Position numbers and translations under genes: made by a program. Positions 5,103 to 26,802 of a DNA stretch of 34,815 bases are shown here, piece by piece. Each line of letters opens with the position of its first letter. Within the stretch, counting starts at the first letter, position 1. The stretch is from Nitrospirota bacterium (lineage in GTDB: Bacteria > Nitrospirota > Thermodesulfovibrionia > Thermodesulfovibrionales > Dissulfurispiraceae). The notes below the pieces were generated by a model. That model was not told where the DNA came from, made no database searches, and was given only the letters and a program-made list of their open reading frames with translations. The stretch lies in the NCBI GenBank assembly GCA_016212685.1, contig JACREW010000002.1, positions 1 through 34,815 of the forward strand. The letters are read 5' to 3'.

Positions 5103-5396
5103 TTATCCCCTGTTGTCCTGAAAATATCCTATAACGGCGAGGATAAACATGGCTACACCAGAAAAGATGTATACCGGCAGTCCCCATGTTGTTCCTTCAA
5201 AAATGCCCATGAAATAAGTGTGGTTGAATATAAACCCCCAGTAGATGACGAAACAGTAGGAGATTAAGAGTCCCAGCTTGTGTTTGCCGAATAAAAGGCA
5301 GAAAGAGTTGATGCTTATAAAAACGATAACCTGTCCGAGAGGCACCGAAAGCTCTTTGCCGGAGAAGAAAATTAAAAGACTATTTATAAATTCCAT
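5103..5396 (-). CDS. Small integral membrane protein (about 3 TM), last gene of the cus-type operon
   Basis: It has hydrophobic segments. Its start lies 5 nt downstream of the cusA stop on the same strand. Confidence 0.55.
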   Translation of the reverse strand: MEFINSLLIFFSGKELSVPLGQVIVFISINSFCLLFGKHKLGLLISYCFVIYWGFIFNHTYFMGIFEGTTWGLPVYIFSGVAMFILAVIGYFQDNRG

Positions 5397-5400
5397 ACTG

Positions 5401-8400
5401 TTACTCTGTTTTTTTGAACTCCCTGCTTTTCCATATCATATATATTGCGGGATAAATTATCAACTCGAGGATCGTCGAGGTGATTACTCCGCCTACCATC
5501 GGCGCTGCAATACGCTTCATAACGTCCGAACCTGTGCCGTGGCTGAACATAATAGGGATAAGACCGGCTAATATAACGCTTACGGTCATGATCTTAGGCC
5601 TGATCCTTTTTACCGAGCCGTACATTATCGCCTCTTTCAGGTCGACAATGCCGTTTAACCTGCCTTCTTTTTTCCATTTTTCATAGGCGAGTTCGAGATA
5701 AAGGAGCATGACCACTCCTGTCTCGGCATCGAGGCCTGCAAGAGCGATAATACCCACCCACACGGCTATGCTCATATTATAGTTGAGGATATAAAGGAGC
5801 CAGAATGAGCCGACAAGAGAGAAGGGCACGGCAAGCAGCACTATGATTGTTTTTGTAACGGACTTTGTATTGAAGTAGATAAGCACAAAGATGATGAGTG
5901 CCGTGAGGGGAATCACGAGTTTCAATCTTTCATGTGTTTTAACGATGTATTCGTACTCGCCGCTCCATTCGAGGCGATAGCCCTCGGGAATCTTTAAAGA
6001 GGCGATTTTCTTTTTTGCCTCTTCGACATATCCGCCTATATCCCTGCCTGAAAAGTCTATATAAACGTATGCCGCCAGAAGCCCCTCTTCGCTCTTTATC
6101 TGCGTAGGGCCTCTTACAATCTTTATGTCCGTTAATTCTCCCAGCGGCACCTGAACAATATTCATGGATGCCGTCCGGATACCGCCCATCGCCGACTGCT
6201 GACCGATGATTGCCGGCTGCTGGTTATTCATAACCGGCACTAAAATTCTTTTTAGTTTTTCGACATCATTCCTTAATTCTCTCGAATAGCGGACATTTAC
6301 CGGATAGCGCTCTCTCCCTTCTACGGTGGTGGTAAGGTTCATGCCGCCTACGGCAGACTGAATGATTTCCTGCACATCGTCCACAGCCAGGCCGTATCGG
6401 GCTGCCTCTTCGCGTTTGATGTTGAAGTCGAGGAAATATCCTGTTGTCACCCTTTCGGCGTACACGCTCCTCGTGCCAGGAATTTCTTTGATATGGTGCT
6501 CTATTTCCAGTCCTAATCTTTCTATTTCTTCAAGTTTTGAGCCCATGACCTTAATCCCTACCGGAGTCCTTATGCCTGTGGAGAGCATATCGATACGTGC
6601 TTTTATGGGCATTGTGAACGAGTTTGCTACTCCGGGGATTGTGAGGGCTTCGTTCATCTCATTCTTCAGGCTTTCTACGGTTATGCCCGGCCTCCATTCC
6701 GATTCCGGTTTCAGATTTACAACAGTCTCGAACATCTCAAGGGGCGCGGGGTCTGTTGCCGTTTCTGCGCGTCCTGCTTTTCCGAATACCTGTGACACTT
6801 CAGGTATTCCTTTGAGTATTTTGTCTTGCATCTGCAGGAGTTTTGAAACCTCCGATATCGAAGCAGCAGGAACAGTTACCGGCATATAAAAGAGTGTGCC
6901 CTCATATAATGGCGGCATGAATTCGGAGCCGAGCTTAAGGAACGGATATGCGGTGATTGCCATGATAATCAGTGCAACTACAATTACCGTCCTTTTAAAC
7001 CTGAGCGCGAGTTTTGCAACCGGTTCATATATCTTATGGAGAATAATGCTTATGGGATTTTTTTCTTCCGGCCTTATTTTGCCTTTAATGAAGAGGGTCA
7101 TTAATACCGGAGTCAACGTAATCGCAAGGAATGATGAGAATAACATTGCAAATGTCTTTGTGTATGCCAGCGGTTTAAAGAGCCTTCCTGCCTGCGCCTG
7201 AAGCGTGAATACGGGAAGAAATCCGACCGTAATGACGAGCAAAGAGAAGAATAGGGAAGGTCCCACCTCTTTTGCGGCATCGATTATTACGTCCATGCGG
7301 CTGCCCTGCCTGCCATGTTCCTCCCATTCTTCGAGCTTCTTATGGGCGTTTTCCACCATAATGATGGAGGCGTCCACAATGGCTCCGATGGCAATGGCAA
7401 TTCCGCTTAAGCTCATGATATTCGAAGTTACGCCTAAATAGTACATGCAGATGAATGAAATGATTATTGCAACAGGCAAGGTAAGAATTACCACAAGCGC
7501 GCTCGGCAGATGGAACAGAAATACTATGCATACAGCGCTGACCGCTACAGAAAGCCTTAATATTTCTTCTTTAAGCGTATCGATTGAGCGGTGTATAAGG
7601 TCTGATCTGTCGTAGGTCACGACAATTTTCATGCCCTTCGGAAGGCTCGGCTCGATATCTTTTTTGATCTTTTCTTTTACCTTGTCTATGACCGTCAGGA
7701 CATTCTCGCCGAACCTGATAACTACTATGCCCCCGGCCACCTCGCCTCTGCCGTCGAGTTCCGTAATACCCCTTCTTATTTCCGGGCCGAGTTGGATATT
7801 CGCAATATCTCTTAGAAATATCGGAGTTCCGGCGCCGTTAGCGCCTACGGAGATGCTTTCGAGGTCTTTGAGGCTTTTAATGTAGCCCCGTCCCCTTACC
7901 ATATACTCTATGCCTGAGAATTCAAGCACCCTTCCTTCCACGTCGCTGTTGCTCTTCTTTATGGCCTCAAGCACCTTCGGCAGCGGAAGGTTATACGCCA
8001 GAAGCCGGTTGGGGTCTATGGTTATCTGGTACTGTTTTACGAATCCTCCGATGCTTGCAACCTGCGAAACGCCTTCGACGCTTTCGAGCGCGAGCTTTAT
8101 GTTGTAGTCCTGAACGGAGCGCAGTTGCGAGAGATCGTGTCCGCCTGTCTCATCCACCACTGCATATGAAAATCCCCATCCCACGCTGGTCGCATCAGGG
8201 CCGAGCACGGGATTCACATCCGCAGGTATCTTGCTTTTAACCGCCTGCAAATACTCCAATACCCTGCTTCGGGCCCAGTAGATATTCGTGCCCTCTTCAA
8301 AAATAACATATATGAACGAACTGCCGAGATATGAGAATCCGCGCACCACCTGCACTTTCGGGGCGGCAAGGAGAGTGGATGTTATCGGATAGGTTATCTG

Positions 8401-8589
8401 GTCTTCAACAAGGTCTGGGCTTCTTCCGGCCCATTCAGTGTAGATGATGACCTGCGTATCGCTTAAATCGGGTATTGCATCGAGAGGGGTCTGTTTTAAT
8501 GCCCAGTATCCCCATACGATGAGAAAAGCCACGAGCAGAAAAATGATAAACTTATTGCGCGCACTGTATTCGATTATTTTTGCTATCAT
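5401..8589 (-). CDS. cusA: Heavy-metal efflux RND pump, CusA/CzcA family
   Basis: 1062 aa. The N-terminus MIAKIIEYSARNKFIIFLL...PLDAIPDLSDTQVIIYTEWAGRSPDLVEDQITYPI is typical of CusA-type HME-RND. The protein has 12-TM RND architecture. Confidence 0.93.
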   Translation of the reverse strand: MIAKIIEYSARNKFIIFLLVAFLIVWGYWALKQTPLDAIPDLSDTQVIIYTEWAGRSPDLVEDQITYPITSTLLAAPKVQVVRGFSYLGSSFIYVIFEEGTNIYWARSRVLEYLQAVKSKIPADVNPVLGPDATSVGWGFSYAVVDETGGHDLSQLRSVQDYNIKLALESVEGVSQVASIGGFVKQYQITIDPNRLLAYNLPLPKVLEAIKKSNSDVEGRVLEFSGIEYMVRGRGYIKSLKDLESISVGANGAGTPIFLRDIANIQLGPEIRRGITELDGRGEVAGGIVVIRFGENVLTVIDKVKEKIKKDIEPSLPKGMKIVVTYDRSDLIHRSIDTLKEEILRLSVAVSAVCIVFLFHLPSALVVILTLPVAIIISFICMYYLGVTSNIMSLSGIAIAIGAIVDASIIMVENAHKKLEEWEEHGRQGSRMDVIIDAAKEVGPSLFFSLLVITVGFLPVFTLQAQAGRLFKPLAYTKTFAMLFSSFLAITLTPVLMTLFIKGKIRPEEKNPISIILHKIYEPVAKLALRFKRTVIVVALIIMAITAYPFLKLGSEFMPPLYEGTLFYMPVTVPAASISEVSKLLQMQDKILKGIPEVSQVFGKAGRAETATDPAPLEMFETVVNLKPESEWRPGITVESLKNEMNEALTIPGVANSFTMPIKARIDMLSTGIRTPVGIKVMGSKLEEIERLGLEIEHHIKEIPGTRSVYAERVTTGYFLDFNIKREEAARYGLAVDDVQEIIQSAVGGMNLTTTVEGRERYPVNVRYSRELRNDVEKLKRILVPVMNNQQPAIIGQQSAMGGIRTASMNIVQVPLGELTDIKIVRGPTQIKSEEGLLAAYVYIDFSGRDIGGYVEEAKKKIASLKIPEGYRLEWSGEYEYIVKTHERLKLVIPLTALIIFVLIYFNTKSVTKTIIVLLAVPFSLVGSFWLLYILNYNMSIAVWVGIIALAGLDAETGVVMLLYLELAYEKWKKEGRLNGIVDLKEAIMYGSVKRIRPKIMTVSVILAGLIPIMFSHGTGSDVMKRIAAPMVGGVITSTILELIIYPAIYMIWKSREFKKTE

Positions 8590-8593
8590 GATA

Positions 8594-9835
8594 TCAGTGT
8601 TTGTGTCCGCCGAGAGGCGCCACGTTTTTCAGTTTTGCCTCGGAATCTATGAGGAACGTGGCCGATGAAGCGACCTTTTCGCCTGCCTTCAATCCCATCG
8701 TTACTTCCCGCAATCCTTCCGCCCTTATACCGAGTATGACCTCTCTCGGTTCGAAATATCCTTCTCCTTTGTCCACATAGACTATCTGCCGCGTGCCTGT
8801 ATCGATTACTGCGTCTTCGGGAACAGCGAGTTTGTTGCCGATATTGATTTTTATCTCCACGGTGGTGAACATCTGGGGCTTCAGTTGCCCGCCCGGATTT
8901 GAGATTGTGAATCTCACCTTAGCCGTCCTCGTTTCGCCGGCAAGGGTAGGGTAGACATAATCAATTGTTGATGAAAATTCCTTGCCCGGGAAATAGCTTA
9001 GACTGATGTTTGCTGTTTGCCCTGTCTTTATTAGTGACAATTCATATTCATAAATATCAGAGATAACCCAAACCGTGGATAAATCAGCCACATCAAAGAG
9101 TTTTTCTCCCGGCATTATACGCATCCCCTGTAATGCCGTTTTTTGAACGATATAGCCGTTTACTGGACTGTATACGGTAAGAGTTCTTACGGGCTTGCCT
9201 GTCTCCTCTATTTTTTTAACCTGCGCCTCTGTTATGTCCCACAATTTTAAACGCTGCTTTGCGGCTTCTATGATCGCATCCGCATCTTTTGAAAGGAGAC
9301 CGCTCATTCTTTCGTTTTTTATTTCTTTGCCTTGTTTCGCCCATTTTATTACATTTATAAATTCCTGTTGCGTTGCGAAAAGTTCGGGGCTGTAAATCTC
9401 AGCGAGCGGCTCTCCTTTTTTTACATATTTGCCGGTGTAATCGATGTATAGTTTCTCTATCCATCCCTCGAATTTCGTATTGACGGTTGCGAGCCTTCTT
9501 TCATCATACTCGATTCGCCCGACAGTCCTGATAATCTTCTGCAGCGGCTTTACCGAAACTGCAACTGTTTTCACGCCTATCAACTGCTGTTTGTCGGGCG
9601 GTATTTCTATGGTAGGCGGCTCCTGTTGCTCTTGAGGCGCTTCTTGAGCTTGCGTCTGTGGTTGCTGCTGTCCGCTCTCCGTTGCATGCCCCTGATGCTC
9701 TGACGACTGAGATGCAGGCGGCTTTGAGGCTTTGCCCTGAAAGATTGTTTTTAAAGATACCGATTTCGAGAAATAAAGGAATATTCCTATCGCGAAACCG
9801 ACGGCGGCGATAATTATCAAATTTCTTTTGCTCAT
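8594..9835 (-). CDS. cusB: Efflux RND periplasmic adaptor (membrane fusion protein), CusB-like
   Basis: N-terminal anchor, a Q/H-rich linker (SEHQGHATESGQQQPQTQ), then barrel-sandwich and beta-barrel MFP sequence. Its stop lies 5 nt upstream of the cusA start. Confidence 0.88.
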   Translation of the reverse strand: MSKRNLIIIAAVGFAIGIFLYFSKSVSLKTIFQGKASKPPASQSSEHQGHATESGQQQPQTQAQEAPQEQQEPPTIEIPPDKQQLIGVKTVAVSVKPLQKIIRTVGRIEYDERRLATVNTKFEGWIEKLYIDYTGKYVKKGEPLAEIYSPELFATQQEFINVIKWAKQGKEIKNERMSGLLSKDADAIIEAAKQRLKLWDITEAQVKKIEETGKPVRTLTVYSPVNGYIVQKTALQGMRIMPGEKLFDVADLSTVWVISDIYEYELSLIKTGQTANISLSYFPGKEFSSTIDYVYPTLAGETRTAKVRFTISNPGGQLKPQMFTTVEIKINIGNKLAVPEDAVIDTGTRQIVYVDKGEGYFEPREVILGIRAEGLREVTMGLKAGEKVASSATFLIDSEAKLKNVAPLGGHKH

Positions 9836-9856
9836 TTTTTCTTCTCCTGACTCTTG

Positions 9857-9937
9857 CCCTTCGACAGGCTCAGGGTGACAGTCTTTATGTTGAACTTATA
9901 GATTTTTCCTGTCATGGTGAGCTTGTCGAACCATGAC
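9857..9937. repeat. Dispersed repeat units (cccttcgacaggctcagggtgaca ... gtcatggtgagcttgtcgaaccatgac)
   Basis: It belongs to the same unit families as 17193-17331 and 21486-21710. The right unit supplies the last 10 codons (VNSHGSTSSP) and the stop codon of the cusC-like ORF. Confidence 0.8.
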
Positions 9938-11249
9938 TGTTGACTGCTGTTATCGCCTCAAGCCTTGCTATGGCTTTTTCTCTTTCGGCGAATTGAACCC
10001 AATAGAAGGTCTCAAAGTCGATAAGTGATTTAAGCCTCGATATAACGGTGATCGCCTCGACCTTGCCGGTTGCATATCCCGAAATTGCCGATTCGAAGTC
10101 CTGATAGGTCTTGGGAATCAAGCCGGTTTTATATAAGTCCATCAGGCTTTCGGAAGTCTTCAACATGGAATAATTGTCCCTGACTGCTGAAGAAAGCATA
10201 AGTTTTAGTCCCTCAAGCTCATGCCGCGCCTCGGATAAAGCCGCCTTTGCCTCATTCACGGCCTGCCTCTGTTTTGTCCCGTAGAAAATAGGTATATTGA
10301 CGGTGGTCGTAAGGCTCCACATATCCTGCATGTTCCTTCTGTCAAAAAGGCTCGCGGCAACGGTAAAATCCGGATAATATTCTTTCTCGGCCATATTCAC
10401 TTTTACCTCTGCCGAGGAGACCATTTTTTCTCTGAGTTTTACTTCGGGCGAATTATTATGCGCCGTTAATATCAACTCGTCCATATTTCGAGCAAGCATT
10501 GTGGCGGGCATCTCCGCAGGCCTGCCGAGGGGAGATTTAACGTTCCTGCCTACTGTGGTGTTAAGCATTGCTTCGATGGATTGTATCTTCTGTTTCAGCA
10601 TTTCTTCTTTTTCAAGAAGCATATATTTTTCGGTCTGTGCCATTATTACCTCCTGCTGGGAGGCCATGCCTGAAGAGTATCTTGCTATAGCTGCGTCCTC
10701 GATCCGTGAGAAGAGCAGGGTTCTGTCTTTTATAAGGTCGATGTTTTTATACATAAGAAAAAGGTCGTAATACAGCTCTTTTATTCTCGCTATGGTTCTA
10801 AGTTGTACCGCTTCGGACGATGCCTTTATGCCCTCGGCATCTCTTTCAGCCATTTCGCCTTTCAGAGGGAGTTTGCCCGGAAAAGGGAACATCTGCGAGG
10901 CCGAGAACATCCACTGCGCGTCCGGAGAATACCCATAGTTATATCTTCCCAGACCTTCATTCTGGTAACCGAACATGAACATAGGGTCCGGAAGGCTCTT
11001 TACCTGTGGTATCTTGAACTTCGATACGGATATTTTCGATTCGGCTACAAGGATTTCGTGGTTGTTCTTCAACGCCTCGTCGATCAAAGATTGCAGGTTC
11101 AGTTCCTCGGCGAAAGCAGGTGAAGCTGACAGTTGACAGCCAACAGCTATTAGCAATGTAAAGACGCGGAGAACCGGTGAATGGGTGAATCGGTGAACAA
11201 ATAAAAATCCTTTTCTCCGTTTCTCCATGTCTCCGTTTCTCCGTATCAT
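9912..11249 (-). CDS. cusC: Outer-membrane efflux protein (TolC/CusC family)
   Basis: It has two OEP repeats (LNLQSLIDEALKNNHEIL... and LILTAHNNSPEV...) and a signal-like segment LLIAVGCQLSASPAFA. The first ~30 codons overlap octamer arrays, so the real start may be ATG 11228 or later. Confidence 0.82.
   Translation of the reverse strand: MIRRNGDMEKRRKGFLFVHRFTHSPVLRVFTLLIAVGCQLSASPAFAEELNLQSLIDEALKNNHEILVAESKISVSKFKIPQVKSLPDPMFMFGYQNEGLGRYNYGYSPDAQWMFSASQMFPFPGKLPLKGEMAERDAEGIKASSEAVQLRTIARIKELYYDLFLMYKNIDLIKDRTLLFSRIEDAAIARYSSGMASQQEVIMAQTEKYMLLEKEEMLKQKIQSIEAMLNTTVGRNVKSPLGRPAEMPATMLARNMDELILTAHNNSPEVKLREKMVSSAEVKVNMAEKEYYPDFTVAASLFDRRNMQDMWSLTTTVNIPIFYGTKQRQAVNEAKAALSEARHELEGLKLMLSSAVRDNYSMLKTSESLMDLYKTGLIPKTYQDFESAISGYATGKVEAITVISRLKSLIDFETFYWVQFAEREKAIARLEAITAVNSHGSTSSP
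11175..11243. repeat. Two tandem octamer arrays, (nnggtgaa) x3 and (tttctccg-like) x4
   Basis: ccggtgaa tgggtgaa tcggtgaa at 11175-11198. tttctccg tttctcca tgtctccg tttctccg at 11212-11243. Confidence 0.8.
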
Positions 11250-11252
11250 ATG

Positions 11253-11642
11253 CTATCGTGCGTCAACATTGAATTTTACCGAGGTCGTCTTTCCGCCGCG
11301 GGTTATTTTTACTGCAACATTCCATGCGCCCGACATGGAGAGGTTCATCTTAGTCTTATACTCGTTGCCTTTCAATTCTGCGTCGGCCTTGTAATTCATT
11401 GCAGGCATTCCCGGCATTGCAGGCATAGAATATTCGACCTTTACCTTCGCATCGGTGATATATTTTCCCGACGCGTCCTTAACTTCGACGGTTATATTGT
11501 TGTCTCCGACAACAGGCGGGTTTTTGTCTATTTTAGCAGTTACATCATACTCCCCTGCCTTTTTCTTTACCTCGTAATCTTTTGCGTACGCGATTCCTGC
11601 AATGAAAAGCAGTATCAAAGTGAATACGGCCAACTTTCTCAT
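11253..11642 (-). CDS. Secreted YtkA/FixH-like beta-sandwich protein with Met-rich loop
   Basis: Signal peptide MRKLAVFTLILLFIAGIAYA and the motif MPAMPGMPAM. Its size and pattern resemble the small FixH/YtkA-like proteins found in copper loci. The family assignment is from memory. Confidence 0.55.
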   Translation of the reverse strand: MRKLAVFTLILLFIAGIAYAKDYEVKKKAGEYDVTAKIDKNPPVVGDNNITVEVKDASGKYITDAKVKVEYSMPAMPGMPAMNYKADAELKGNEYKTKMNLSMSGAWNVAVKITRGGKTTSVKFNVDAR

Positions 11643-11669
11643 AACGCTGCCTCCTGTAATGTTAATTTA

Positions 11670-11939
11670 TTAGTGTTTGTGGCGCATGCGGTGATCTTTA
11701 TGTTTTCCCGTCATGTCTTCCATTGGTTTGTCTGACATTTTCTCCTTCATATCCTGTTTGTCCGACATATCTTTCTCTTTTGCATTATCGCTCTGTTTAT
11801 CGTGCTTGTTTCCATCAGACTTGTCGTCTCCCATTTTGCCGCCCATCATTTCGCCCATCATAGCATCTGAAAGGACGGGATAACTCACCAGAAATCCGAC
11901 CGCCAGAATGCTTAAAAATATACCGGATATCCTTTTCAC
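11670..11939 (-). CDS. Small secreted Met/His/Asp/Lys-rich protein (candidate periplasmic metal binder)
   Basis: GTG start 8 nt after an AGGAGG RBS. A signal peptide is followed by the low-complexity MMGEMMGGKMG...KHKDHRMRHKH. Confidence 0.6.
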   Translation of the reverse strand: MKRISGIFLSILAVGFLVSYPVLSDAMMGEMMGGKMGDDKSDGNKHDKQSDNAKEKDMSDKQDMKEKMSDKPMEDMTGKHKDHRMRHKH

Positions 11940-11951
11940 TTTTCAATCCTC

Positions 11952-12350
11952 CTATCGTTTAAACTCTTTTTCTACAGTCTCCTTTATCTTTTTTACAGGA
12001 TAACCTTTTTTGTAAAGTTCGGAAGCCCGCAGGGCCTCCCGTAGACAAATATCTCACATTGCGGCGTGATTGTCAACATAGCAACTGAGGAGACTCTTAT
12101 GTTTAAACGCCGGAGACTCTTTGCACATGCAGTAGCAATAGATACTGTCCAGGACCCAGGGAATTTCCTTTGCAATCTGGTATGCCTTTTTTATTTGCGC
12201 ATCGGGAAACAGGTTCGGGTCGAGGGTAGTCCTTGTTTCTCCCTTTCTCAGGGATTCGTCTTTTGCCTGCTTTTGCGCGAACGCGTCATTTGCCGCTGCA
12301 AAGAGGATCGTTACGGCAATCAGCAATAATGTTATCCGAAACTTTTTCAT
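11952..12350 (-). CDS. Candidate selenoprotein: secreted CYCxC / UxxC Cys-motif protein (PCYCGC-domain-like), UGA at 12054-12056 read as Sec
   Basis: It has a signal peptide and the sequence IYCYCMCKESPAFKHKSLLSCYVDNHAAM-[TGA]-DICLREALRASELYKKGYPVKKIKETVEKEFKR. Read-through stays open for 33 codons and ends at a TAG embedded in the next gene's RBS (TAGGAGG). A SECIS-like hairpin follows the UGA. Confidence 0.6.
12020..12041 (-). promoter_or_regulatory. SECIS-like hairpin 13 nt downstream of the in-frame UGA
   Basis: On the mRNA strand: CGGGAG(G)CC-CUGC-GG(G)CUUCCG. The lower stem has 6 bp, followed by a mismatch or bulge, 2-3 more bp, and a G-containing apical loop about 22 nt from the UGA. 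Confidence 0.5.
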
Positions 12351-12399
12351 AAACTCACCTCCTCTCGTCTTATTTGTTTTAGGGAGATTAACAAAAGAT

Positions 12400-12416
12400 T
12401 ATGAATGAAGTATGAA
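12400..12416 (-). promoter_or_regulatory. TATGAA-N5-TATGAA direct repeat upstream of the Cys-motif/Sec gene
   Basis: The plus strand reads TATGAAtgaagTATGAA, about 50 nt upstream of the ATG at 12350. This copy could also be read as a heptamer array, (tgaagta) x2. Confidence 0.3.
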
Positions 12417-12441
12417 GTATTCGGCGACATAGTGTGTTCCA

Positions 12442-13287
12442 TTAATAGGACGGTTTGGTGTCCCGAATGGAACCGCCGTCTTCCTTTGGCTCCTCAAGCA
12501 CGTTTATAAGGAGATCTATTTTCCTGATAATCCCGTTATGCTTGAATTCCCCGAAAACGGCATGTTTGCCGTGTTTCATAAAGACTATGCTTACCGCTAC
12601 CTCAGGGCCTCCGAGATTCTGTTTGGGGGCCGCATAGATGAATTCCTCCATATCCTCATCCCATGCGGCAACCTGCATATCGAAACCGTCGATCTTCTCA
12701 AGTCCTTTAAGTGGAATGCCTTTATACATTATTCCATAAACTATTGTCACTACATGTTCTGAATATATTCTTTTGGGAATAAGCTTTACCTTCACGCTGT
12801 AATCTTCATCACCGGCCTTTGTTTCCGGTTCTGAAGTTTTTTTGTCACCTTTGATTTTTATATCCCTGCTGATGTTTATCCAGCCATCCTGCGTTTTAAA
12901 TACCGCTTCAAACCTGTATTTCCCCGCTTGCGGGACATTGAAACCGAATGTATATTTCCCGTTGCCGGATATTACCGGCCTCAGATGTCTGTATATATGC
13001 AGGTCTTCATCGGCGATGAATACGTGAAGGTCGTCTATCTTTGCCGTCCCCTTTGAGCGAATGTCCATGCTGAAAGTAGTTTCTGTTCCGGCTGCGGTAT
13101 CATCGTATTGAAGATTAAGCTCATAATCTTTGGGGTTCCTTAGAACCTTCCATATATACGGCTTTTCATTATGAGTATCGGGTATTATAAGCACCTCCTT
13201 TTCGAGGTCGAGTTGTGCATGGGACGGCGCAGCCGCCAACAGCAAAGACAAAAGCAGTAATGACAAAAGTTTTGTTTTCATATCCAC
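12442..13287 (-). CDS. Secreted two-domain beta-sandwich protein of unknown function
   Basis: Signal peptide LLSLLLLSLLLAAAPSHA. Two similar halves are present: LHVFIADEDLHIYRHLRP...GKYRFEAVF and MQVAAWDEDMEEFIYAAP...HAVFGEF. Its start lies 2 nt downstream of the upstream gene's stop. Confidence 0.6.
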   Translation of the reverse strand: MDMKTKLLSLLLLSLLLAAAPSHAQLDLEKEVLIIPDTHNEKPYIWKVLRNPKDYELNLQYDDTAAGTETTFSMDIRSKGTAKIDDLHVFIADEDLHIYRHLRPVISGNGKYTFGFNVPQAGKYRFEAVFKTQDGWINISRDIKIKGDKKTSEPETKAGDEDYSVKVKLIPKRIYSEHVVTIVYGIMYKGIPLKGLEKIDGFDMQVAAWDEDMEEFIYAAPKQNLGGPEVAVSIVFMKHGKHAVFGEFKHNGIIRKIDLLINVLEEPKEDGGSIRDTKPSY

Positions 13288-13288
13288 C

Positions 13289-15343
13289 TCAATGACCGTG
13301 CCTCGGCGACATGGGCTGGCCGAGGATATATGTGTTTAGCATCATGAAGAAAACGGCAAGGGCTGCCATCGGAATAAATGCCCTCATCGCCTTATCTCCG
13401 TAATATTTTACCGCTATCCTATACCCCGAATAGAGGGAGAAGACATTGAGCATCATAAAAATGGCCATCTGCAGCCATAATATGGATTCAGAGCCCATAA
13501 GAGGTATTATATCCCAATCGGGCTCGCCCATGTTCAGACCCAAATGCAGCGCTGCCGCCCTCTGAATCGCCGGTATTATGCCGGGACCTTCTTTGAACAG
13601 ATGGGAGACATTATGGGCGAGATGCATAGAGAGCCCTACAGGGATGAACATATAGGCGAATCTTATAATGGTTTCCTTTAATGACAGGGGTGATCCCGGC
13701 CCGGTAGCTTTACGCACCGCAAACGCTGCAAAGGCAAGCAAAGACAGAGGTATAACGAGCGAGCCGACTGTCATAACTATCAGAAAGGTTAGCTTCTCTG
13801 CACCGGCATGGGACGCAATACCGAACCATTTGTAAGGGATAGCCTTCCCTATAACATCCATCCACTTATGCCACGGCTCCACCATCTCGCCTGTTACGAC
13901 TATCGTAAGCCCTACGAGCACCATTGCGAGATATGCCTCGTCCATATACCCTTTTGCAGAAACCCACAGATCTTTTGCAAAGCTCCTGACCCTGACAACG
14001 ATATTGTCCTGCGAGCATGATTTTATGCACTCGCTGCAGAAATTACAATAATTATTTCTGTCGAGAGTAACCGGGGTCACGAACATGGGGCATGGAAGGC
14101 CATTACCCGCTCCCTTAACGCATTCTTTTGCTTCGTGTCCTCTGCATACTTCGAGGCACTTATTCCTGAGTTCTACAGGGCTGAACATGGAATAGAGACC
14201 GATAATGCCTCCTATGGGACATACGTATCTGCAAAATGACCTGCCCTTAAATGTAACGGCCATTCCCACAGCGGCAATAAAAAAGCCGATAAGCAGGTAG
14301 GAGGTGAGGGCGGGTTTATTCACTATCCCGCTGTAACTGTCCCACCATGTGAGACCGAAGAATATGAAGCTCGACAGCCAGATGTTCCTTACGGGCTTTG
14401 GAAAGTTTTTGTTCAGGCTGAACAATCTGCCGAGCCGGTCCTGCGCCGCGCCGAAGGGGCACATCATGCACCAGACCCTTCCGGCAAATACAAATGTGAA
14501 TATTATGGCAGCCCACCATATGGTCCACATCGACAGCGTCGCGATGTTCCTGTCGCCCTGCTGCACGTCCAAAAGACCGGCCGCAATTATAATGAGGAAT
14601 AACACGAATGCGGGTATCTGAAACACCGGCTGGAACCACGAGGATTTGAAAAATTTCTTAATCCATGGAATATCGAGCAAGTTGAGCTTCTGTCCCGTCT
14701 GCAATGTCAGTGATTTCCTCTGTGACAGTATCCATATGCCTAAAAGGCCGCTTGAAAAGATAACAATTGCCGTGAACCACATCCGGTACAGCGGGATCTT
14801 CGACGCCTCACGGTATGGCATGGCGCCGCCGTAAATAATGGGTTCGGCAAACCTTTTTCCTCCGAGGGATTTCACTGCAATTATGAATTTGTAATCGCCT
14901 TTTTTAATTATAGGATATGATGTTGAATACATGCCGGCCATCTGACCTGCCTTAAATCTCGTGAAATACGAGAGGTCGTAAGAAGGCCGCTCATCAGGGG
15001 CGCTGCCAAAGTCGAGGCCGTCTTCGCCTGGAATGCTGTTTTTTACTGCCGGAGCCGCTGTGTGCCCTGCATGGGCGGCAGATGTAGAGGCATCCTGCAA
15101 GTATAGATATATCTCTGCATCCAAAACTGGGTTTCCTGACATGGAATCGGTCAGCGCCACCGATATTTCCGGCGTCTTTCCCTTTATAAATGTCGCAGGC
15201 TCGATCTTTAACTTTACCTCAGCCGTGTCAATGCGGAATTCATAGGAGGACCGGACGTTCCCGTGTCCTTCGCCGCCTAATGCATAGGTTGCAGTAAAGA
15301 GCATCGTCAAAAGTACAACAATATGCGAGATAAGCTTCTTCAT
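13289..15343 (-). CDS. Membrane polyferredoxin (NapH/NosR/CcoG-like 4Fe-4S protein) with N-terminal periplasmic YtkA-like domain
   Basis: A signal peptide and a ~170-aa soluble domain come first, followed by multiple TM segments. Motifs include CX3CP (CMMCPFG, CRYVCPIGG), the ferredoxin-type CNFCSECIKSC, and extra Cys residues (CLEVCRGHEAKEC). Confidence 0.75.
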   Translation of the reverse strand: MKKLISHIVVLLTMLFTATYALGGEGHGNVRSSYEFRIDTAEVKLKIEPATFIKGKTPEISVALTDSMSGNPVLDAEIYLYLQDASTSAAHAGHTAAPAVKNSIPGEDGLDFGSAPDERPSYDLSYFTRFKAGQMAGMYSTSYPIIKKGDYKFIIAVKSLGGKRFAEPIIYGGAMPYREASKIPLYRMWFTAIVIFSSGLLGIWILSQRKSLTLQTGQKLNLLDIPWIKKFFKSSWFQPVFQIPAFVLFLIIIAAGLLDVQQGDRNIATLSMWTIWWAAIIFTFVFAGRVWCMMCPFGAAQDRLGRLFSLNKNFPKPVRNIWLSSFIFFGLTWWDSYSGIVNKPALTSYLLIGFFIAAVGMAVTFKGRSFCRYVCPIGGIIGLYSMFSPVELRNKCLEVCRGHEAKECVKGAGNGLPCPMFVTPVTLDRNNYCNFCSECIKSCSQDNIVVRVRSFAKDLWVSAKGYMDEAYLAMVLVGLTIVVTGEMVEPWHKWMDVIGKAIPYKWFGIASHAGAEKLTFLIVMTVGSLVIPLSLLAFAAFAVRKATGPGSPLSLKETIIRFAYMFIPVGLSMHLAHNVSHLFKEGPGIIPAIQRAAALHLGLNMGEPDWDIIPLMGSESILWLQMAIFMMLNVFSLYSGYRIAVKYYGDKAMRAFIPMAALAVFFMMLNTYILGQPMSPRHGH

Positions 15344-15924
15344 TTCTTTCTAAACATCTCGTTGATGATGAGAAGTCCTCTCCTTGCGCCTGATGCGATT
15401 GCCTGCGCGGACTTCTCTCTGCCTGCCGGAGCGCTTATATCAGCGCCGACCTTAAAGAGGTCCGACGACTTTTTGTTTTCGAACTGTTTTAGGAACTGCG
15501 GCTGCAGGAGCTTTTCAGACTCTTTGTTCTCGAAGATGTATATCTTCATAATCTCTCCCTTGCCGCCCACAACAACTCCCATCTCTATTTTTCCGCCTTC
15601 GCCGTGCGCATCGATAAACATCATTGCAGCGGCCTTGCGCGGAGGGGCTTCAGGGCTGCTCCTAACCACCGCTAGATATATCGAAGGCTTCAGGTCTTCC
15701 TCAGGCAATCTGCTTCCTAAAGCCCTTTCGATGGCTGTTCGCTGTTCGTCGGAGACATAGAGATTTTTTTGTTCAAAGGACTCGGCCCGAGGAAACAGCT
15801 CTTTAAGTTTTTCGCCCGGCCATACAAGATCGTGGGCAAAAGAAACCGGGACAAAAAAGAGCAAAAGGATAATTGCCGATAGATTTAAGAATCTGTTTCT
15901 TATGTTATTAGATGCCATAACCAT
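15340..15924 (-). CDS. Periplasmic FMN_bind-like domain protein (NosR N-terminal-domain-like, degenerate flavinylation motif)
   Basis: N-terminal anchor, then ...MFIDAHGEGGKIEMGVVVGGKGEIMKIYIFENKESE...QPQFLKQFENK...VGADISAPAG. The canonical SGAT(I/V)S Thr motif is absent. It overlaps the polyferredoxin gene by 4 nt. Confidence 0.4.
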   Translation of the reverse strand: MVMASNNIRNRFLNLSAIILLLFFVPVSFAHDLVWPGEKLKELFPRAESFEQKNLYVSDEQRTAIERALGSRLPEEDLKPSIYLAVVRSSPEAPPRKAAAMMFIDAHGEGGKIEMGVVVGGKGEIMKIYIFENKESEKLLQPQFLKQFENKKSSDLFKVGADISAPAGREKSAQAIASGARRGLLIINEMFRKK

Positions 15925-15926
15925 CG

Positions 15927-16202
15927 CTATTTTAAGATGCCTTCTTTGGATGCGTTGGGCATAGTGTTTTTGAGTGTATTATTGTCTTGCTGCGTATGCT
16001 CTGCGGCATCGCTTTTCGGCGTCTGATGACTATTGGTTTTTCCATCGCCGACTGCGCTTTCCTGACGATTATCTATTACACCCTGTCCGCCCGTCATTTC
16101 GCTCTCCGGCTCTCCGGAGTCTCCATGACAGTTTATTATGGCATAACTATAGCCTGCCGTTAATATAATAATCAGTATACTTATAAATATTATTTTTTTC
16201 AT
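15927..16202 (-). CDS. Small secreted low-complexity protein
   Basis: It has a signal peptide (IFISILIIILTAGYSYA) and is tightly packed between the cytochrome c gene and the FMN_bind-like gene. No recognisable domain. Confidence 0.45.
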   Translation of the reverse strand: MKKIIFISILIIILTAGYSYAIINCHGDSGEPESEMTGGQGVIDNRQESAVGDGKTNSHQTPKSDAAEHTQQDNNTLKNTMPNASKEGILK

Positions 16203-16206
16203 CGAC

Positions 16207-16623
16207 TTATCTCCTGTCTCCTTCAGTTTTTTTGAGGCTTTTGATATAATTCACAAGATGCCATCTCATTTCCTTTGTCAATTCTTTTTTGAATCCTTTC
16301 ATAGGCGCGGGTCCTTTTGTCCCGTCCGTTATAACATGAAATATCTCGCCGTCGGTGTTCCCATGGATCAACAGTCCATCAGTGAGATCGGTTTTTTCAT
16401 TGCCTTTGCTCGATTCTCCATGGCATGAAACGCAGCGCTTTTCAAAAAGCCCTTTACCCTTGACTATGGAGTCTTCGGTCATGGGAACGGGATTTTTGAC
16501 CTTAGCGTATTCTTTGTGTTTGTGCGGATGCGGTTTGTGGACATGCTCCGTTGTCTGAGCGGATATTTCTACGGGTGCAAAATACGATACAGCCAATGCA
16601 GTTAAAACGATTATTTTTTTCAT
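16207..16623 (-). CDS. Monohaem c-type cytochrome (class I)
   Basis: Signal peptide, haem motif CVSCHG, and the distal Met region GPAPMKGF. A GGAG RBS precedes the start. Confidence 0.85.
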   Translation of the reverse strand: MKKIIVLTALAVSYFAPVEISAQTTEHVHKPHPHKHKEYAKVKNPVPMTEDSIVKGKGLFEKRCVSCHGESSKGNEKTDLTDGLLIHGNTDGEIFHVITDGTKGPAPMKGFKKELTKEMRWHLVNYIKSLKKTEGDRR

Positions 16624-16664: not shown

Positions 16665-16692
16665 TTTGAATATATTATGAATGCCTTATGAA
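16665..16692 (-). promoter_or_regulatory. Triple 11-bp-phased direct repeat TTTGAA-N5-TATGAA-N5-TATGAA upstream of the cytochrome c gene
   Basis: The plus strand reads TTTGAAtatatTATGAAtgcctTATGAA, 42-69 nt upstream of the ATG at 16623. The phasing is typical of OmpR/PhoB-type regulator sites. Confidence 0.4.
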
Positions 16693-16704
16693 AAAACTGT
16701 GAAA

Positions 16705-16742
16705 ACAAAAAAAGAGGCAGCCTTGGGGGGAAAGGCTGCCTC
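16705..16742 (-). terminator. Rho-independent terminator after the small Cys-motif gene
   Basis: On the minus strand the stem is gaggcagcc / ggctgcctc with an 11-nt loop, followed by TTTTTTTG. Confidence 0.75.
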
Positions 16743-16771: not shown

Positions 16772-17092
16772 TTAATATATCGACCTGATCCTTCCTGTCC
16801 TGCAGTCGAGCAGGATTCTATCAATTATTTTTTTGTTTTTGATAACCTCCGCCTCTATAAATCTCCCGTCTTGCTTTATAATAACTACCTGCAGGCCTTT
16901 TTTTGCATAGTGCGATTTCAGGACATTGACTGCTTCCTCATGAGTAGGCTGCTCTTTGCAGTATCCGTACGCCCCGCACATAGGGCAGCGCTCTCCATAT
17001 GGCGTAGGGGTTTCGGATGGATGATTCTCCGGGTAAACATTCGCAGGCAAGGTTACAAGCAGAGCCGATATAAAAAAGATGTATAGCTTCAT
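16772..17092 (-). CDS. Small secreted protein with CxxCx5C motif and PepSY-like C-terminal half
   Basis: ATG at 17092 (MKLYIFFISALLVTLPANVY...) gives a signal peptide. It contains ERCPMCGAYGYC. The listed longer ORF (to 17287) runs into repeat DNA and is rejected as the start. Confidence 0.6.
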   Translation of the reverse strand: MKLYIFFISALLVTLPANVYPENHPSETPTPYGERCPMCGAYGYCKEQPTHEEAVNVLKSHYAKKGLQVVIIKQDGRFIEAEVIKNKKIIDRILLDCRTGRIRSIY

Positions 17093-17113
17093 GCAATCAT
17101 GATACAAACAGAC

Positions 17114-17130
17114 TTTGAATAAATTATGAA
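17114..17130 (-). promoter_or_regulatory. TTTGAA-N5-TATGAA direct repeat upstream of the small Cys-motif gene
   Basis: The plus strand reads TTTGAAtaaatTATGAA, 22-38 nt upstream of the ATG at 17092. Confidence 0.3.
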
Positions 17131-17192
17131 TTACTAAGAAATACATTTGTAATGCCACATTATTTGTCATTCCCGCGAAGGCGGGAATCCAG

Positions 17193-17331
17193 CCCTTCGA
17201 CAAGCGTTCGACTGAGGCTTCGACAGGTTCAGCCTGACATTGCTCACGCCGAAGGCTCAAGGTGTCATGGTGAGCCTGTCGAACCATGGATTCAGGGTCA
17301 AGCCCGGAATGACGGTTATGAGGCTTTGTTA
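17193..17331. repeat. Left copy of a ~140-bp inverted repeat (composite of dispersed palindromic units)
   Basis: Its reverse complement matches 21486-21625 with 2 substitutions and 1 single-base indel. It ends 10 bp from the stop of the C-N hydrolase gene. It is preceded by the unit gtcattcccgcgaaggcgggaatcc (17166-17190). Confidence 0.9.
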
Positions 17332-17340
17332 ACTTATGTC

Positions 17341-18111
17341 TTAGTATATGCGAATATCCTTAAGGAAAGGGAACCGCGCCCTTATTTCAACGGCCTCGGC
17401 CGGATCGAATTCGCATACTATAAATTCATCTTTGTCATTGCCAGAACAGACGGCGTTTCCCGGCGGATCGAAAACACTGGACGCCCCCGGATAATAAATG
17501 CCGTTTCCGTCCGTGCCGGTGCGGTTGACGCCGATCACAAAGCATTGGTTTTCGATGGCGCGGGCTTTAAGCAGGGTTTCCCAATGCTCTTTGCGGGATG
17601 CCGGCCAGTTGGCTATAACAAATATTGCCTGAACATCTCCGGCGACTTTTCTGAATACCTCAGGGAAGCGCAGGTCATAGCAGATAAATACGCTGCACGT
17701 CATGCCGTCTATGTCAAAAGTAACGGTATCCTCGCCGGCAGCATAATATTTGTCTTCATCCAAAAGCGAGAAGGGATGCATCTTTGTATAGGCGGCGATG
17801 CGCCTTCCCTTTCTATCGTATACAGCGGCTATGTTCCTGCCTTTTTCTTCTGAGGGTTCTTTTATAGGAAAACCTGCAATTATATATATGCCGTATTTTT
17901 GGGCTATCCCCGACAATACCGAATCGGTCTTTCCATGTTCGCTTTCTGCAATCCCTGAAACATTCATGGAAAATCCCGTGTTGAACATTTCCGGAAGCGC
18001 TGCAATGTCGCACTTCAGACAGGCAGCCTTTTCTATAAAAGATTCCGCCCGTTTATAATTTTCTTCCTTCTCTTCCCATTTGATGTCCAGTTGTATCAAA
18101 GCGATTTTCAT
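17341..18111 (-). CDS. Carbon-nitrogen hydrolase family protein (nitrilase/omega-amidase-like)
   Basis: It has the Glu-Lys-Cys signature regions: AALPEMFNTGF, the conserved Lys in the YTKMHPF region, and VFICYDLRFPE. Confidence 0.85.
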   Translation of the reverse strand: MKIALIQLDIKWEEKEENYKRAESFIEKAACLKCDIAALPEMFNTGFSMNVSGIAESEHGKTDSVLSGIAQKYGIYIIAGFPIKEPSEEKGRNIAAVYDRKGRRIAAYTKMHPFSLLDEDKYYAAGEDTVTFDIDGMTCSVFICYDLRFPEVFRKVAGDVQAIFVIANWPASRKEHWETLLKARAIENQCFVIGVNRTGTDGNGIYYPGASSVFDPPGNAVCSGNDKDEFIVCEFDPAEAVEIRARFPFLKDIRIY

Positions 18112-19731: not shown

Positions 19732-20421
19732 TCAATCTGGGGCTCCGATAAATTTATATCCCGCCCCGTATACCGTTTTTATAAATACCGGCCTTTGAGG
19801 GTTATCTTCTATTTTATGCCTTATATTTTTGACATGCGCGTCGATGACCCTGTCGTATCCCTCGAAATCATATCCCTGCACGGCATTGACGATCTGCAGT
19901 CTGCTGAAGACCATCTGCGGTTTTTCGGCCATGCACAGGAGTATGCGGAATTCGGTGGCTGTCAGGGGTGTAACATCTTTCCCTTTTTTTACTTCCATCG
20001 AGAGTGTATCTATTGTCAGAAGCCCGTCGTTGAAGGAGAGCAGTTTTTTTTCATTTTTTTTCGTCCTTCTGAGATGTGCCTTGACCCGCGCCGCGAGTTC
20101 CCTCGGGCTGAAGGGTTTTATAACATAATCGTCGGCTCCGATGCCGAGCCCTTTGATCCTGTCCTCTTCCGCGCTTTTGGCGGTAAGCATTATTATCGGG
20201 ACATCCGAGAATTCCCTGATAGAGCCGCAAATAGTCTCCCCATCGATGTCGGGAAGCATTAAATCTAAAATTATAAGATCGAAGTCTTTTTTGATGAGTT
20301 GTAGCGCGGCCTGCCCTGTCTCTGCAACGGATACCTTGAAGCCGTCCCTCTCGAGGTATGATTTTACGATGTCCGAGATTTTTTTTTCGTCTTCTACTAT
20401 AAGAATTTTCTCATCGTTCAT
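19732..20421 (-). CDS. OmpR/PhoB-family response regulator
   Basis: Receiver domain (ILIVEDE...LIILDLMLPDIDG...MLTAK) plus winged-helix output domain (LTATEFRILLCMAE...RVIDAHVKNIRHKIE...IKTVYGAGYKF). Confidence 0.92.
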   Translation of the reverse strand: MNDEKILIVEDEKKISDIVKSYLERDGFKVSVAETGQAALQLIKKDFDLIILDLMLPDIDGETICGSIREFSDVPIIMLTAKSAEEDRIKGLGIGADDYVIKPFSPRELAARVKAHLRRTKKNEKKLLSFNDGLLTIDTLSMEVKKGKDVTPLTATEFRILLCMAEKPQMVFSRLQIVNAVQGYDFEGYDRVIDAHVKNIRHKIEDNPQRPVFIKTVYGAGYKFIGAPD

Positions 20422-25412: not shown

Positions 25413-25428
25413 GCAATGGGCGATAGGC
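25394..25428. repeat. Five tandem heptamers (nnnnggc: acgaggc gacaggc aataggc aatgggc gataggc)
   Basis: Read directly from the sequence. The array spans the cbiM stop codon (25410-25412) and uses the same word family as 2931-3004. Confidence 0.75.
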
Positions 25429-25449
25429 GGATATGATGAGGATTAGAAA

Positions 25450-25782: not shown

Positions 25783-25788
25783 AGGCGG

Positions 25789-26637: not shown

Positions 26638-26649
26638 TTGTGTTAACAA

Positions 26650-26780: not shown

Positions 26781-26802
26781 TCGAATATATAACGGGAGTG
26801 CT

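Follow-up and report, generated by a model that had tools for sequence, protein, structure and literature searches.

Organization of the copper-exporter locus

The 34,815 nucleotides of contig JACREW010000002.1 analysed here (positions 1 to 34,815; referred to below as the window) come from a Nitrospirota bacterium with a genome like that of sulfate reducers (assembly GCA_016212685.1) and carry a cluster of genes in which a Cus-type metal exporter is combined with a membrane polyferredoxin and its partners. A reading of this DNA made from the sequence alone (the sequence-only reading) had described a packed cluster on the minus strand, and our analysis confirmed it: twelve open reading frames (ORFs) run in one direction from 16623 to 5103, with a spacing of -4 (an overlap) to 91 nt. 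All coordinates given below are on the minus strand unless stated otherwise. The locus is made up of separable parts, namely a regulator (response regulator, histidine kinase and carbon-nitrogen hydrolase; RR-HK-CN_hydrolase), an uncharacterised module A (an RnfG-like protein, the polyferredoxin and a 281-amino-acid (aa) protein, here together with a cytochrome c) and module B, which is of a known exporter type (a CYCXC protein, a Met/His-rich peptide, a CrdA-like protein, CusC, CusB and CusA). The polyferredoxin, the RnfG-like protein and the 281-aa protein are referred to collectively as the triad, and related loci are denoted by L followed by a number. The window holds the concatenated, fullest version of this modular locus, and CYCXC is the connector common to the modules.

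A hairpin resembling an intrinsic terminator (16714..16742; an 11-bp stem with 7 GC pairs, then TTTTTTTGTT) closes the upstream unit; read from 16742 to 16714, the stem is followed by a run of seven T residues. Next comes a sigma-70-like promoter candidate for the operon (16674..16703; TTCACA-18-CATAAT, 10 of 12 matches), so that terminator (16742..16714) and promoter-like site (16703..16674) stand directly upstream of the cytochrome c gene. A terminator scan of the window found no strong minus-strand terminator inside the cluster. Because the promoter and terminator totals in the window were not above those of shuffled sequence controls, only the pair at 16742..16674 is used here. In a 95%-identical relative (L006), 4.5 kb of genes encoding a methyl-accepting chemotaxis protein (MCP), HD-GYP and GGDEF proteins are inserted exactly at this terminator/promoter boundary, a position that fits an operon beginning at the cytochrome c gene.

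The exporter half resembles described copper efflux systems

The pump gene (5401..8589) encodes a protein of the CusA-type heavy-metal resistance-nodulation-division (RND) family, scoring 1098.4 bits against TIGR00914 (cutoff 701.45). Its closest solved structure is E. coli CusA (1067 bits, compared to 477 for ZneA), and the three-Met metal site is intact, with M569, M619 and M668 aligning with M573, M623 and M672 of the E. coli protein. The membrane-fusion protein (CusB/CzcB type; 8594..9835) matches HlyD_D23 at 272 bits and TIGR01730 at 132 bits (cutoff 94.9), and the outer-membrane factor (CusC/CrdB type; 9912..11249) matches PF02321 (OEP) with an E of 5e-37. These Pfam and NCBIfam matches, together with those of the monohaem cytochrome c described below, bear out the four identities proposed in the sequence-only reading. 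The 129-aa periplasmic protein encoded at 11253..11642 belongs to the YtkA family (PF13115; E 3e-20, 73 bits against a cutoff of 25.9) and matches the structure of H. pylori CrdA (9ll2; E 3e-14), and a YSMPxMPGMPxM loop is invariant across the alignment of its family; we consider it a CrdA-like, predicted Cu(I)/Ag(I)-binding protein. A match of this protein to ExtJ of a selenite/tellurite operon (E 4e-4), which might have suggested a metalloid role, was rejected because it is below the cutoff and covers the signal-peptide region only.

The order CrdA-like protein, outer-membrane factor, membrane-fusion protein, RND pump assigns the exporter part to the crdA-crdB-czcB-czcA type of copper efflux described in H. 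pylori (PMC9182242), and E. coli CusCFBA shows the same order of Met-loop protein, outer-membrane factor, fusion protein and pump. Judged by its sequence, then, the exporter half is an ordinary CrdAB-CzcBA or Cus-type exporter, predicted to act on Cu(I)/Ag(I). Unlike these systems, however, the unit in the window is headed by the genes for CYCXC and the Met/His-rich peptide and lies downstream of the polyferredoxin module; compared to CusCFBA it also lacks a CusF-type OB-fold chaperone.

A polyferredoxin outside the named families of its superfamily

The 684-aa membrane polyferredoxin (13289..15343) consists of an N-terminal periplasmic Ig-like domain, a NapH-like core with two Fer4_5 matches, cytoplasmic motifs for two [4Fe-4S] clusters, and a C-terminal domain with five transmembrane (TM) helices. 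Of the CX3CP motifs reported in the sequence-only reading, one is present (C371-C375-P376), whereas the other is a CX2CP motif (C292-C295-P296). The invariant cysteines (C292, C295, C371, C375, C400, C408, C418, C433, C436, C439 and C443) include those of two ferredoxin-type [4Fe-4S] motifs. Hidden Markov models (HMMs) for NosR (NF046105) and CcoG (TIGR02745) gave no match at an E of 0.1 or better, and that for NapH (TIGR02163) gave 24.7 bits against a cutoff of 213.05. These thresholds rule out an assignment to NosR, CcoG or NapH, and neither nap genes (the partners napG and napA) nor a nos context (nosZ, nosDFYL) are found in the window. On sequence grounds we therefore place the protein in the NapH/NosR/CcoG superfamily, outside each of the named families. 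Its profile had no match among the sequences of the PDB.

The model of the polyferredoxin obtained with AlphaFold2 (AF2) was of moderate quality (pLDDT 67), and Foldseek searches with it recovered the N-terminal domain only, which matched CrdA (E 5e-3) and the copper proteins FetP/P19; CLC/transporter matches to the membrane part were of low probability and were discarded as spurious. A variable, His/Met-rich loop is present in the N-terminal domain, with the motif HxxHxM in the Nitrospirota clade. At the other end of the protein, residues 460-684 (13292-13966) form a 225-aa domain of about five TM helices that corresponds to no Pfam family, even in a weak-threshold scan. The family of this domain comprises 303 representative clusters, either stand-alone or fused to Fer4_5 cores, and among 111 aligned members H577 is conserved in 100%, H581 in 94% and M678 in 88%, with P568, A576, P658 and P677 conserved as well. 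By helix counting, these residues of what we call the His2Met domain, and a C-terminal RHxH, would face the periplasm and the Fe-S motifs the cytoplasm. One family member, P0263, joins the domain to a GltD-like NAD(P)H oxidoreductase in a single protein, which suggests a cytoplasmic electron donor.

The polyferredoxin is reminiscent of CcoG (FixG/RdxA), a membrane protein from the Fer4_5/CX3CP superfamily that contains two [4Fe-4S] clusters and exposes an Ig-like domain to the periplasm. The Ig-like domain of CcoG (FixG_C) is C-terminal, however, whereas that of the window protein is N-terminal, and the window protein has in addition the C-terminal five-TM His2Met domain, separate RnfG-like and His-rich partners, and no ccoNOQP or ccoHIS genes around it. 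NosR and NirI, too, combine a periplasmic FMN_bind-fold element with a CX3CP membrane core and cytoplasmic ferredoxin motifs, and NosR serves a periplasmic copper enzyme. Compared to NosR, the polyferredoxin has extra N- and C-terminal domains; compared to NosR and NirI, the FMN_bind-fold element is encoded by a separate gene and has no flavinylated-Thr motif.

Partners of the polyferredoxin

The 194-aa periplasmic subunit (15340..15924) scores 16.8 bits against FMN_bind (PF04205), below the gathering threshold of 22, and its profile matches RnfG (7zc6_G) at an E of only 0.03. Its AF2 model (pLDDT 89.8), in contrast, has RnfG and NqrC as best Foldseek matches (E 5e-7, TM-score 0.55-0.61; the RnfG/NqrC matches range from E 5e-7 to 8e-4 at a probability of 1.00), so that the predicted structure confirms an RnfG/NqrC (FMN_bind) fold. 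The FMN_bind-like label given in the sequence-only reading thus holds at the level of the modelled fold and fails at that of the profile. In the RnfG-like family (32 to 50 members) D-I-(S/T)-A-P-x-G (D162...P166) takes the place of the motif Dxx(S/T)GA(S/T), leaving the acceptor position without a conserved Ser/Thr, and ApbE is encoded neither in the window nor in six Pfam-annotated loci, although the rest of the genome could encode it. With the motif absent and no ApbE nearby, we rejected covalent flavinylation of the protein and kept the fold. The further proposal that the pair represents a NosR split across two genes was right about the FMN_bind fold but not about NosR itself, given the missing flavinylation motif and ApbE and the scores of the polyferredoxin against the NosR, CcoG and NapH models. 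Another invariant feature of the RnfG-like family is H31-D32, which follows the predicted cleavage site of the signal peptide; an N-terminal histidine brace at this site is only an idea, as there is no second conserved His and the pLDDT of the segment is low.

The 281-aa secreted protein (bs281; 12442..13287) has four invariant histidines (H39, H101, H178 and H250) and no conserved Cys or Met in its family alignment. The two-domain beta-sandwich assigned to it in the sequence-only reading is putative: its match to YtkA is weak (E 1e-3), and homology of the bs281 and YtkA/CrdA families was rejected on an hhalign probability of 6.6%; for the second half of the protein a weak-threshold Pfam scan gave nothing usable. 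At the head of the operon, the gene at 16207..16623 encodes a class-I, monohaem cytochrome c (one CxxCH; PF13442 and PF00034) that bears a signal peptide and, in the NCBIfam comparison, resembles cbb3 subunit III. A cytochrome c gene lies directly upstream of the RnfG-like gene in L006 and L008 as well.

Three short ORFs complete the cluster: a low-complexity secreted ORF of 91 aa (15927..16202), a secreted peptide of 89 aa recognised by its composition, rich in Met, His, Asp and Lys (11670..11939), and a hydrophobic ORF of 97 aa located 4 nt past CusA (5103..5396). None of them belongs to a family detected in our scans, the weak-threshold Pfam scan included, and phmmer searches of related loci found essentially no homologues, the 91-aa ORF having one distant match and being absent from L006. 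Since the 97-aa ORF is not conserved (no Pfam or NCBIfam family and no phmmer homologue in related loci), its membership in the operon is uncertain. Met/His-rich secreted proteins that are not homologous to the 89-aa peptide lie beside the triad in L008 (60-310), L001 (13000-13434) and L003 (12973-13527 and 18125-18568), and the recurrence of proteins so alike in composition suggests that the peptide is one case of a fast-evolving class missed by sequence search.

CYCXC is a probable selenoprotein

In the ORF list the CYCXC gene spans 12054-12350 and ends at an in-frame TGA (12056..12054). If this UGA is read as selenocysteine (Sec99), the frame continues with UDIC...KEFKR to a TAG at 11954..11952, located 12 nt ahead of the next start codon, and the product becomes a periplasmic protein of 132 aa (OS_HP4/PCYCGC family, PF13798; 11952..12350). 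With U read as C, this product scores 127 bits against NF041379 (cutoff 90) and contains both a CYCMC and a UDIC motif, in agreement with the CYCxC/UxxC protein named in the sequence-only reading. Among 47 polyferredoxin-adjacent CYCXC homologues the same column holds an in-frame TGA in 35 and Cys in 12, with the downstream frame conserved. A bSECIS-like hairpin (12021..12039) with an 8-bp stem begins 14 nt past the UGA; a hairpin of this kind is found in two clades at the same position but with a different sequence. We conclude from these sequence features that CYCXC is a genuine-looking selenoprotein gene that the standard ORF call had truncated. The UxxC motif has been catalogued for the CYCXC/OS_HP4 family (PMC13188914), a known computational selenoprotein family with no function assigned (PMC13188914, PMC13068155). 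A selenoprotein with a signal peptide, and hence in the periplasm, is unusual.

The triad recurs beside copper exporters

We took a census of related loci using six-frame ORFs, phmmer and hmmsearch, with the proteins of the window as queries. The close clade comprises 30 non-redundant loci and the distant clade 51. Polyferredoxins of the close clade are at least 58% identical and belong to Thermodesulfovibrionales/Nitrospirota; one Desulfobulbaceae conjugative element bears a homologue at about 50%. In the close clade the RnfG-like gene immediately flanks the polyferredoxin gene in 29 of 30 loci and the 281-aa gene does so in 28, both always at less than 50 nt.

Exporter genes are frequent around the triad. 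Cus genes lie within 10 kb of it in 10/30 close loci and a P1B-ATPase in 13/30; the 20 loci without Cus often have a P1B-ATPase in its place. One exporter or the other is within 10 kb in 21/30 loci, and in 15/18 of those at least 15 kb long. The 30 loci also contain CYCXC (13), a CrdA-like protein (12), RR-HK (about 10) and cytochrome c (4). The full order of the window, from cytochrome c through the RnfG-like protein, polyferredoxin, 281-aa protein, CYCXC, YtkA, CusC and CusB to CusA, recurs in L008 (polyferredoxin 69% identical) and is kept up to the contig ends in L006 (95%; ends in CusC) and L007 (82%; polyferredoxin to CusB), which argues that the arrangement is not due to chance. L017 and L031 show looser versions of it.

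Other loci join the triad to copper genes in different ways. L001 has the order OmpA-CopA-CYCXC-triad, the last three co-directional and tightly spaced, L003 has RR-HK-CN_hydrolase-triad with CopA, an outer-membrane factor (OMF) and a multicopper oxidase nearby, and L087 has YtkA-triad-OMF-CusB-CusA; elsewhere the triad stands beside P1B-ATPases with HMBD or YHS domains, a multicopper oxidase or CopB. In a Desulfobulbaceae metagenome-assembled genome (MAG; L004, VMSU01000225.1) the order is CopB-OMF-HMBD-CusB-CusA-triad on a Trb element. The copper genes and triad of L004 adjoin the conjugation genes TrbL, TrbM and TraX, and the module may here spread horizontally within a copper island. The plasmid database yielded only distant homologues (at most 31% identical, for example on Deinococcus ficus pDFI1) in uninformative contexts.

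A candidate copper reductase or redox module

We observed gene content, folds, conserved residues, synteny and copper context; which way the electrons move, that their target is copper and that the exporter receives it are inferences. The reading that we favour, at a confidence somewhat short of even, is that the locus is a copper/silver envelope-stress operon whose module A would be a periplasm-directed copper reductase or redox module feeding Cu(I) exporters. Its copper context follows from the Met triad of CusA, the CrdA homologue, the neighbouring P1B-ATPases, multicopper oxidase and CopB, and the recurring Met/His-rich proteins. A composite of a Cus-type exporter with a periplasm-facing redox module had also been proposed in the sequence-only reading, and this view is supported.

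In such a scheme a cytoplasmic or quinol donor would pass electrons to the pair of cytoplasmic [4Fe-4S] clusters in the polyferredoxin, from where they would traverse the membrane through the core and the C-terminal His2Met domain of that protein. At the periplasmic side, Cu(II) bound to His/Met-rich Ig-like domains would be reduced to Cu(I), the CYCxC...UxxC selenoprotein would be kept reduced, or both. The Cu(I) could then pass to CrdA and CusCBA, exporters that accept Cu(I) only; alternatively, the system might handle Cu(I) delivered by CopA. Outward flow is suggested by the Cu(I)-specific exporters, the fusion to an NAD(P)H oxidoreductase, the likely redox potentials and the precedent of CcoG. 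CcoG, which shares the superfamily of the polyferredoxin, reduces Cu(II) and enhances copper tolerance, and no other specific bacterial cupric reductase has been described (PMC7558416).

The same precedent can be turned towards copper acquisition or cuproenzyme maturation, since the assembly of cbb3 oxidase draws its Cu(I) from CcoG (PMC7558416). The module would then, in a CcoG- or YcnJ-like manner, capture periplasmic copper and reduce it for import or loading, with the C-terminal His/Met membrane domain as conduit. The likeness of the cytochrome c to cbb3 subunit III would suit this, and the linkage of a CopC/CrdA-like N-terminal domain to a membrane domain is reminiscent of CopC-CopD fusions. 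We consider it improbable, however, as the neighbouring genes encode exporters (Cus and P1B-1-type ATPases) rather than importers or oxidases and there is no CopD or CcoG HMM signal.

Still less probable, and in our estimate barely to be entertained, is a flow of electrons in the opposite direction, in which the module would serve as an anaerobic cuprous oxidase that takes electrons from Cu(I) in the periplasm, delivers them to the Fe-S clusters and quinone, and so replaces the O2-dependent CueO. Multicopper oxidases would be unworkable in a host lineage that is probably anaerobic, and in FtrABCD-type systems a periplasmic copper protein does have a membrane polyferredoxin as its electron sink. 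Low-potential [4Fe-4S] clusters and menaquinone, however, would be expected to be poor acceptors for electrons from Cu(I), the co-located exporters take Cu(I) and not Cu(II), and one relative has the fused NAD(P)H-type oxidoreductase.

CYCXC as partner of the polyferredoxin and of the exporter

CYCXC, which occurs in 13/30 close loci, adjoins the polyferredoxin in 33/51 loci of the distant clade, and no other partner of this polyferredoxin family is conserved as widely, a point missed in the sequence-only reading. These counts lend weight to the possibility that the substrate of the polyferredoxin is the CYCxC...UxxC selenoprotein itself, which would be reduced at its thiol/selenol groups in the manner of DsbD-DsbC or ScsB-ScsC, with no enzymatic reduction of copper; the reduced CYCXC would buffer Cu(I) or repair copper-oxidised envelope proteins. 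The redox-type UxxC/CxxC motif, the interchange of Sec and Cys and the signal peptide fit such a role, as does a VKOR-thioredoxin fusion encoded close to the triad of L086. Scs-type systems make bacteria tolerant of copper, and ScsB-ScsC and DsbD follow the same logic, in which a copper-stress locus pairs a membrane electron transporter with a CxxC-type protein of the periplasm. The transporters of Scs/DsbD are unrelated to the polyferredoxin, however, and theirs is a thiol-disulfide cascade, whereas that of the window involves Fe-S clusters.

A reciprocal scan, in which the CYCXC alignment was compared to metagenome contigs, gave 26 loci of at least 6 kb. These contain a CrdA-like gene in 19, CusC in 19, CusB in 17, CusA in 16 and HK/RR in 10-11 cases, and the polyferredoxin in just two. 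Their usual order is RR-HK-(CN_hydrolase)-(281-aa gene)-CYCXC-CrdA-CusCBA. Units of the form RR-HK-CYCXC-CrdA-CusC-CusB-CusA without a polyferredoxin, in which CYCXC most often leads the copper genes, are found among L090-L168 (for example L090, L107, L125 and L133), and L096, L106 and L127 have the 281-aa gene, without the rest of the triad, ahead of CYCXC-CrdA-CusCBA. That CYCXC heads CrdA-CusCBA units suggests that this orphan family takes a direct part in copper handling. As close homologues of CYCXC mostly stand with CrdA-CusCBA and have no polyferredoxin within 5 kb, CYCXC cannot generally depend on the polyferredoxin. In addition, the polyferredoxin itself possesses a His2Met site and, in the periplasm, a metal-type domain rich in His and Met, and the thioredoxin fold of CYCXC is only putative. 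Thiol/selenol reduction is the strongest competitor of the copper-reductase reading, but one that we regard as unlikely. Co-conservation of the redox genes with cusCBA, which the sequence-only reading had tied to its proposal, is borne out in so far as an exporter accompanies the triad in 21/30 loci, but not for Cus itself, absent from 20/30, nor in the reverse direction, with the polyferredoxin in 2/26 CYCXC loci.

Distant homologues and the case for respiration

The distant clade (33-46% identity) includes Methylomirabilota/Rokubacteria, Desulfobacterales, Nitrospinota, Acidobacteria and others. Its 51 loci contain neither the RnfG-like nor the 281-aa gene, and c-type cytochromes are adjacent in 18. 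One deltaproteobacterium has YHS, Metal_resist and P-ATPase neighbours. In Rokubacteria/NC10 (L058 7300-17000; L037, L047, L068, L074, L076 and L077) the polyferredoxin-CYCXC pair lies amid genes for P19/FetP-like proteins, EB_dh haem-b proteins, tetra- and multihaem cytochromes c and cytochrome b. It is thus conceivable that the module is a NapH-like respiratory or extracytosolic relay from the quinol pool to a periplasmic cytochrome c or a terminal oxidoreductase, the copper neighbours reflecting a cofactor need or clustering in islands. A monohaem cytochrome c heads the operon in the window, L006 and L008, and a NapH-like protein with a separate FMN-binding protein is a documented, generic kind of electron-transfer system: Meheust et al. 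2021 found a PF12801 membrane protein beside a secreted FMN-binding-type protein in 539 clusters, most of unknown function (PMC8238504). The partner in the window differs from those of such NapH-like flavinylation-associated systems in being below the FMN_bind threshold, lacking the motif and having no ApbE nearby, and the paper (PMC8238504) makes no mention of copper, YtkA/CrdA, CYCXC or polyferredoxin. We judge this alternative to be distinctly unlikely, since no gene for a terminal reductase or oxidase is present in the window cluster or in the annotated close-clade loci, cytochrome c occurs in only 4/30 triad loci, and the exporter association is far above the at most about 3% that we estimate, uncomputed, for a 20-kb window.

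Several observations nevertheless weigh against a copper reductase feeding Cu(I) exporters. The host lineage is likely to be anaerobic, and most copper there would already be Cu(I). With an RnfG-like subunit that has no flavinylation motif and no nearby ApbE, electrons would lack an obvious route out of the membrane, and the Fe-S region of the polyferredoxin is poorly modelled (overall pLDDT 67). The His/Met loop of its N-terminal domain is missing in the distant clade, and the Rokubacterial context looks respiratory, or like one of extracellular electron transfer, rather than detoxifying. Since one module can occur without the other, Cus does not require the triad in order to work. The two-component system falls outside the CusRS/CopRS HMM type. 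Finally, polyferredoxin homologues were found only in MAGs of uncultured organisms.

Novelty and implications of the proposed module

In the literature that we searched, the triad, its link to the copper exporter, the CYCXC-polyferredoxin and CYCXC-CrdA-Cus associations and the His2Met domain appear to be undescribed, and no paper pairing a polyferredoxin with copper resistance was found among the best-ranked matches. The sequence-only reading had considered the whole gene order undescribed; this seems true of the link between triad and exporter, but the YtkA-CusCBA part is known from H. pylori (PMC9182242). The new part of the finding rests on comparative genomics and structure prediction.

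More tentatively than the reading of the operon itself, we suggest that the triad and CYCXC may make up a new class of copper reductases or redox relays that face the periplasm and, in anaerobes, prepare copper for export as Cu(I). Were this the case, it would be the first function for the CYCXC/OS_HP4 selenoprotein family, would give a role to the unexplained Ig-like domain of CcoG-type proteins, and would make the A-H-x3-H ... P-M domain, with its about 300 protein clusters, a new, unannotated transmembrane electron-transfer domain. The question bears on how periplasmic Cu(II) becomes Cu(I) for Cus, CrdA and CopA systems and on how NapH/NosR-type proteins carry electrons across the membrane. 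A CcoG-superfamily protein that combines a copper-type domain in the periplasm with a conserved His2Met domain in the membrane, and that is genetically linked to copper exporters and to CYCXC, makes the locus a compact and conserved candidate open to testing, and hypotheses are provided for three orphan families (the non-flavinylated RnfG-like protein, the 281-aa His protein and CYCXC), along with a description of copper handling in uncultured anaerobic Nitrospirota.

Upstream regulator and other features of the window

Upstream of the operon lie genes for an OmpR-family response regulator (19732..20421; Response_reg and Trans_reg_C), which is the probable regulator of the locus, and a HAMP/HisKA sensor histidine kinase closest to BaeS (18262..19638). 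In CrdRS and CusRS systems, too, a two-component system accompanies the exporter; the kinase of the window, however, is below the heavy-metal threshold (118.9 bits against 292.55 for TIGR01386), and so is the response regulator (167.6 against 279.2 for TIGR01387). RR-HK(-CN_hydrolase) stands ahead of copper genes in L003, L006, L026, L031, L090-L096, L106, L125, L127, L133 and L147. The carbon-nitrogen hydrolase (17341..18111; PF00795, E 1e-41) is YafV or omega-amidase-like; a CN_hydrolase lies beside RR-HK and copper genes in five polyferredoxin loci and two CYCXC loci, and this omega-amidase or deaminated-glutathione-amidase-like gene is kept with RR-HK in L003, L006, L026, L031, L106 and L147.

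Next to the terminator-like hairpin, a secreted protein of about 105 aa with a CPMCG motif is encoded at 16772..17089. It belongs to no family in Pfam, NCBIfam or weak-threshold scans, and homologues lie beside the triad in L006, L026, L028, L031 and L040. Its true start is probably 17089 (MKLYIFF…): at about 17090-17290, on both strands, the first 66 codons of a 171-aa ORF (…WIPAFAGMT…) and an overlapping plus-strand ORF resemble a translated intergenic repeat element.

On the far side of the cluster, a DUF2400 gene is split on the plus strand between 4195-4482 and 4504-5076, the parts covering profile positions 1-71 and 82-224 and the second containing a Gly/Arg-rich stretch; a frameshift, a pseudogene or an insertion may account for this. 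A second, smaller NapH-type polyferredoxin of 333 aa (21792-22793; two Fer4_5 matches and a dicluster domain, with weak NapH, NosR and CcoG matches) is encoded just upstream of GalT-like, RR and HK genes. The plus strand from 24687 to 31402 carries genes for a CbiM-PDGLE-CbiQ-ABC system of the energy-coupling factor (ECF) type for Co/Ni uptake, followed by a TonB-dependent receptor, TonB, DUF2162, an ExbB-like protein and DUF2149, and constitutes a second metal-transport region of the window, unrelated to the copper operon.

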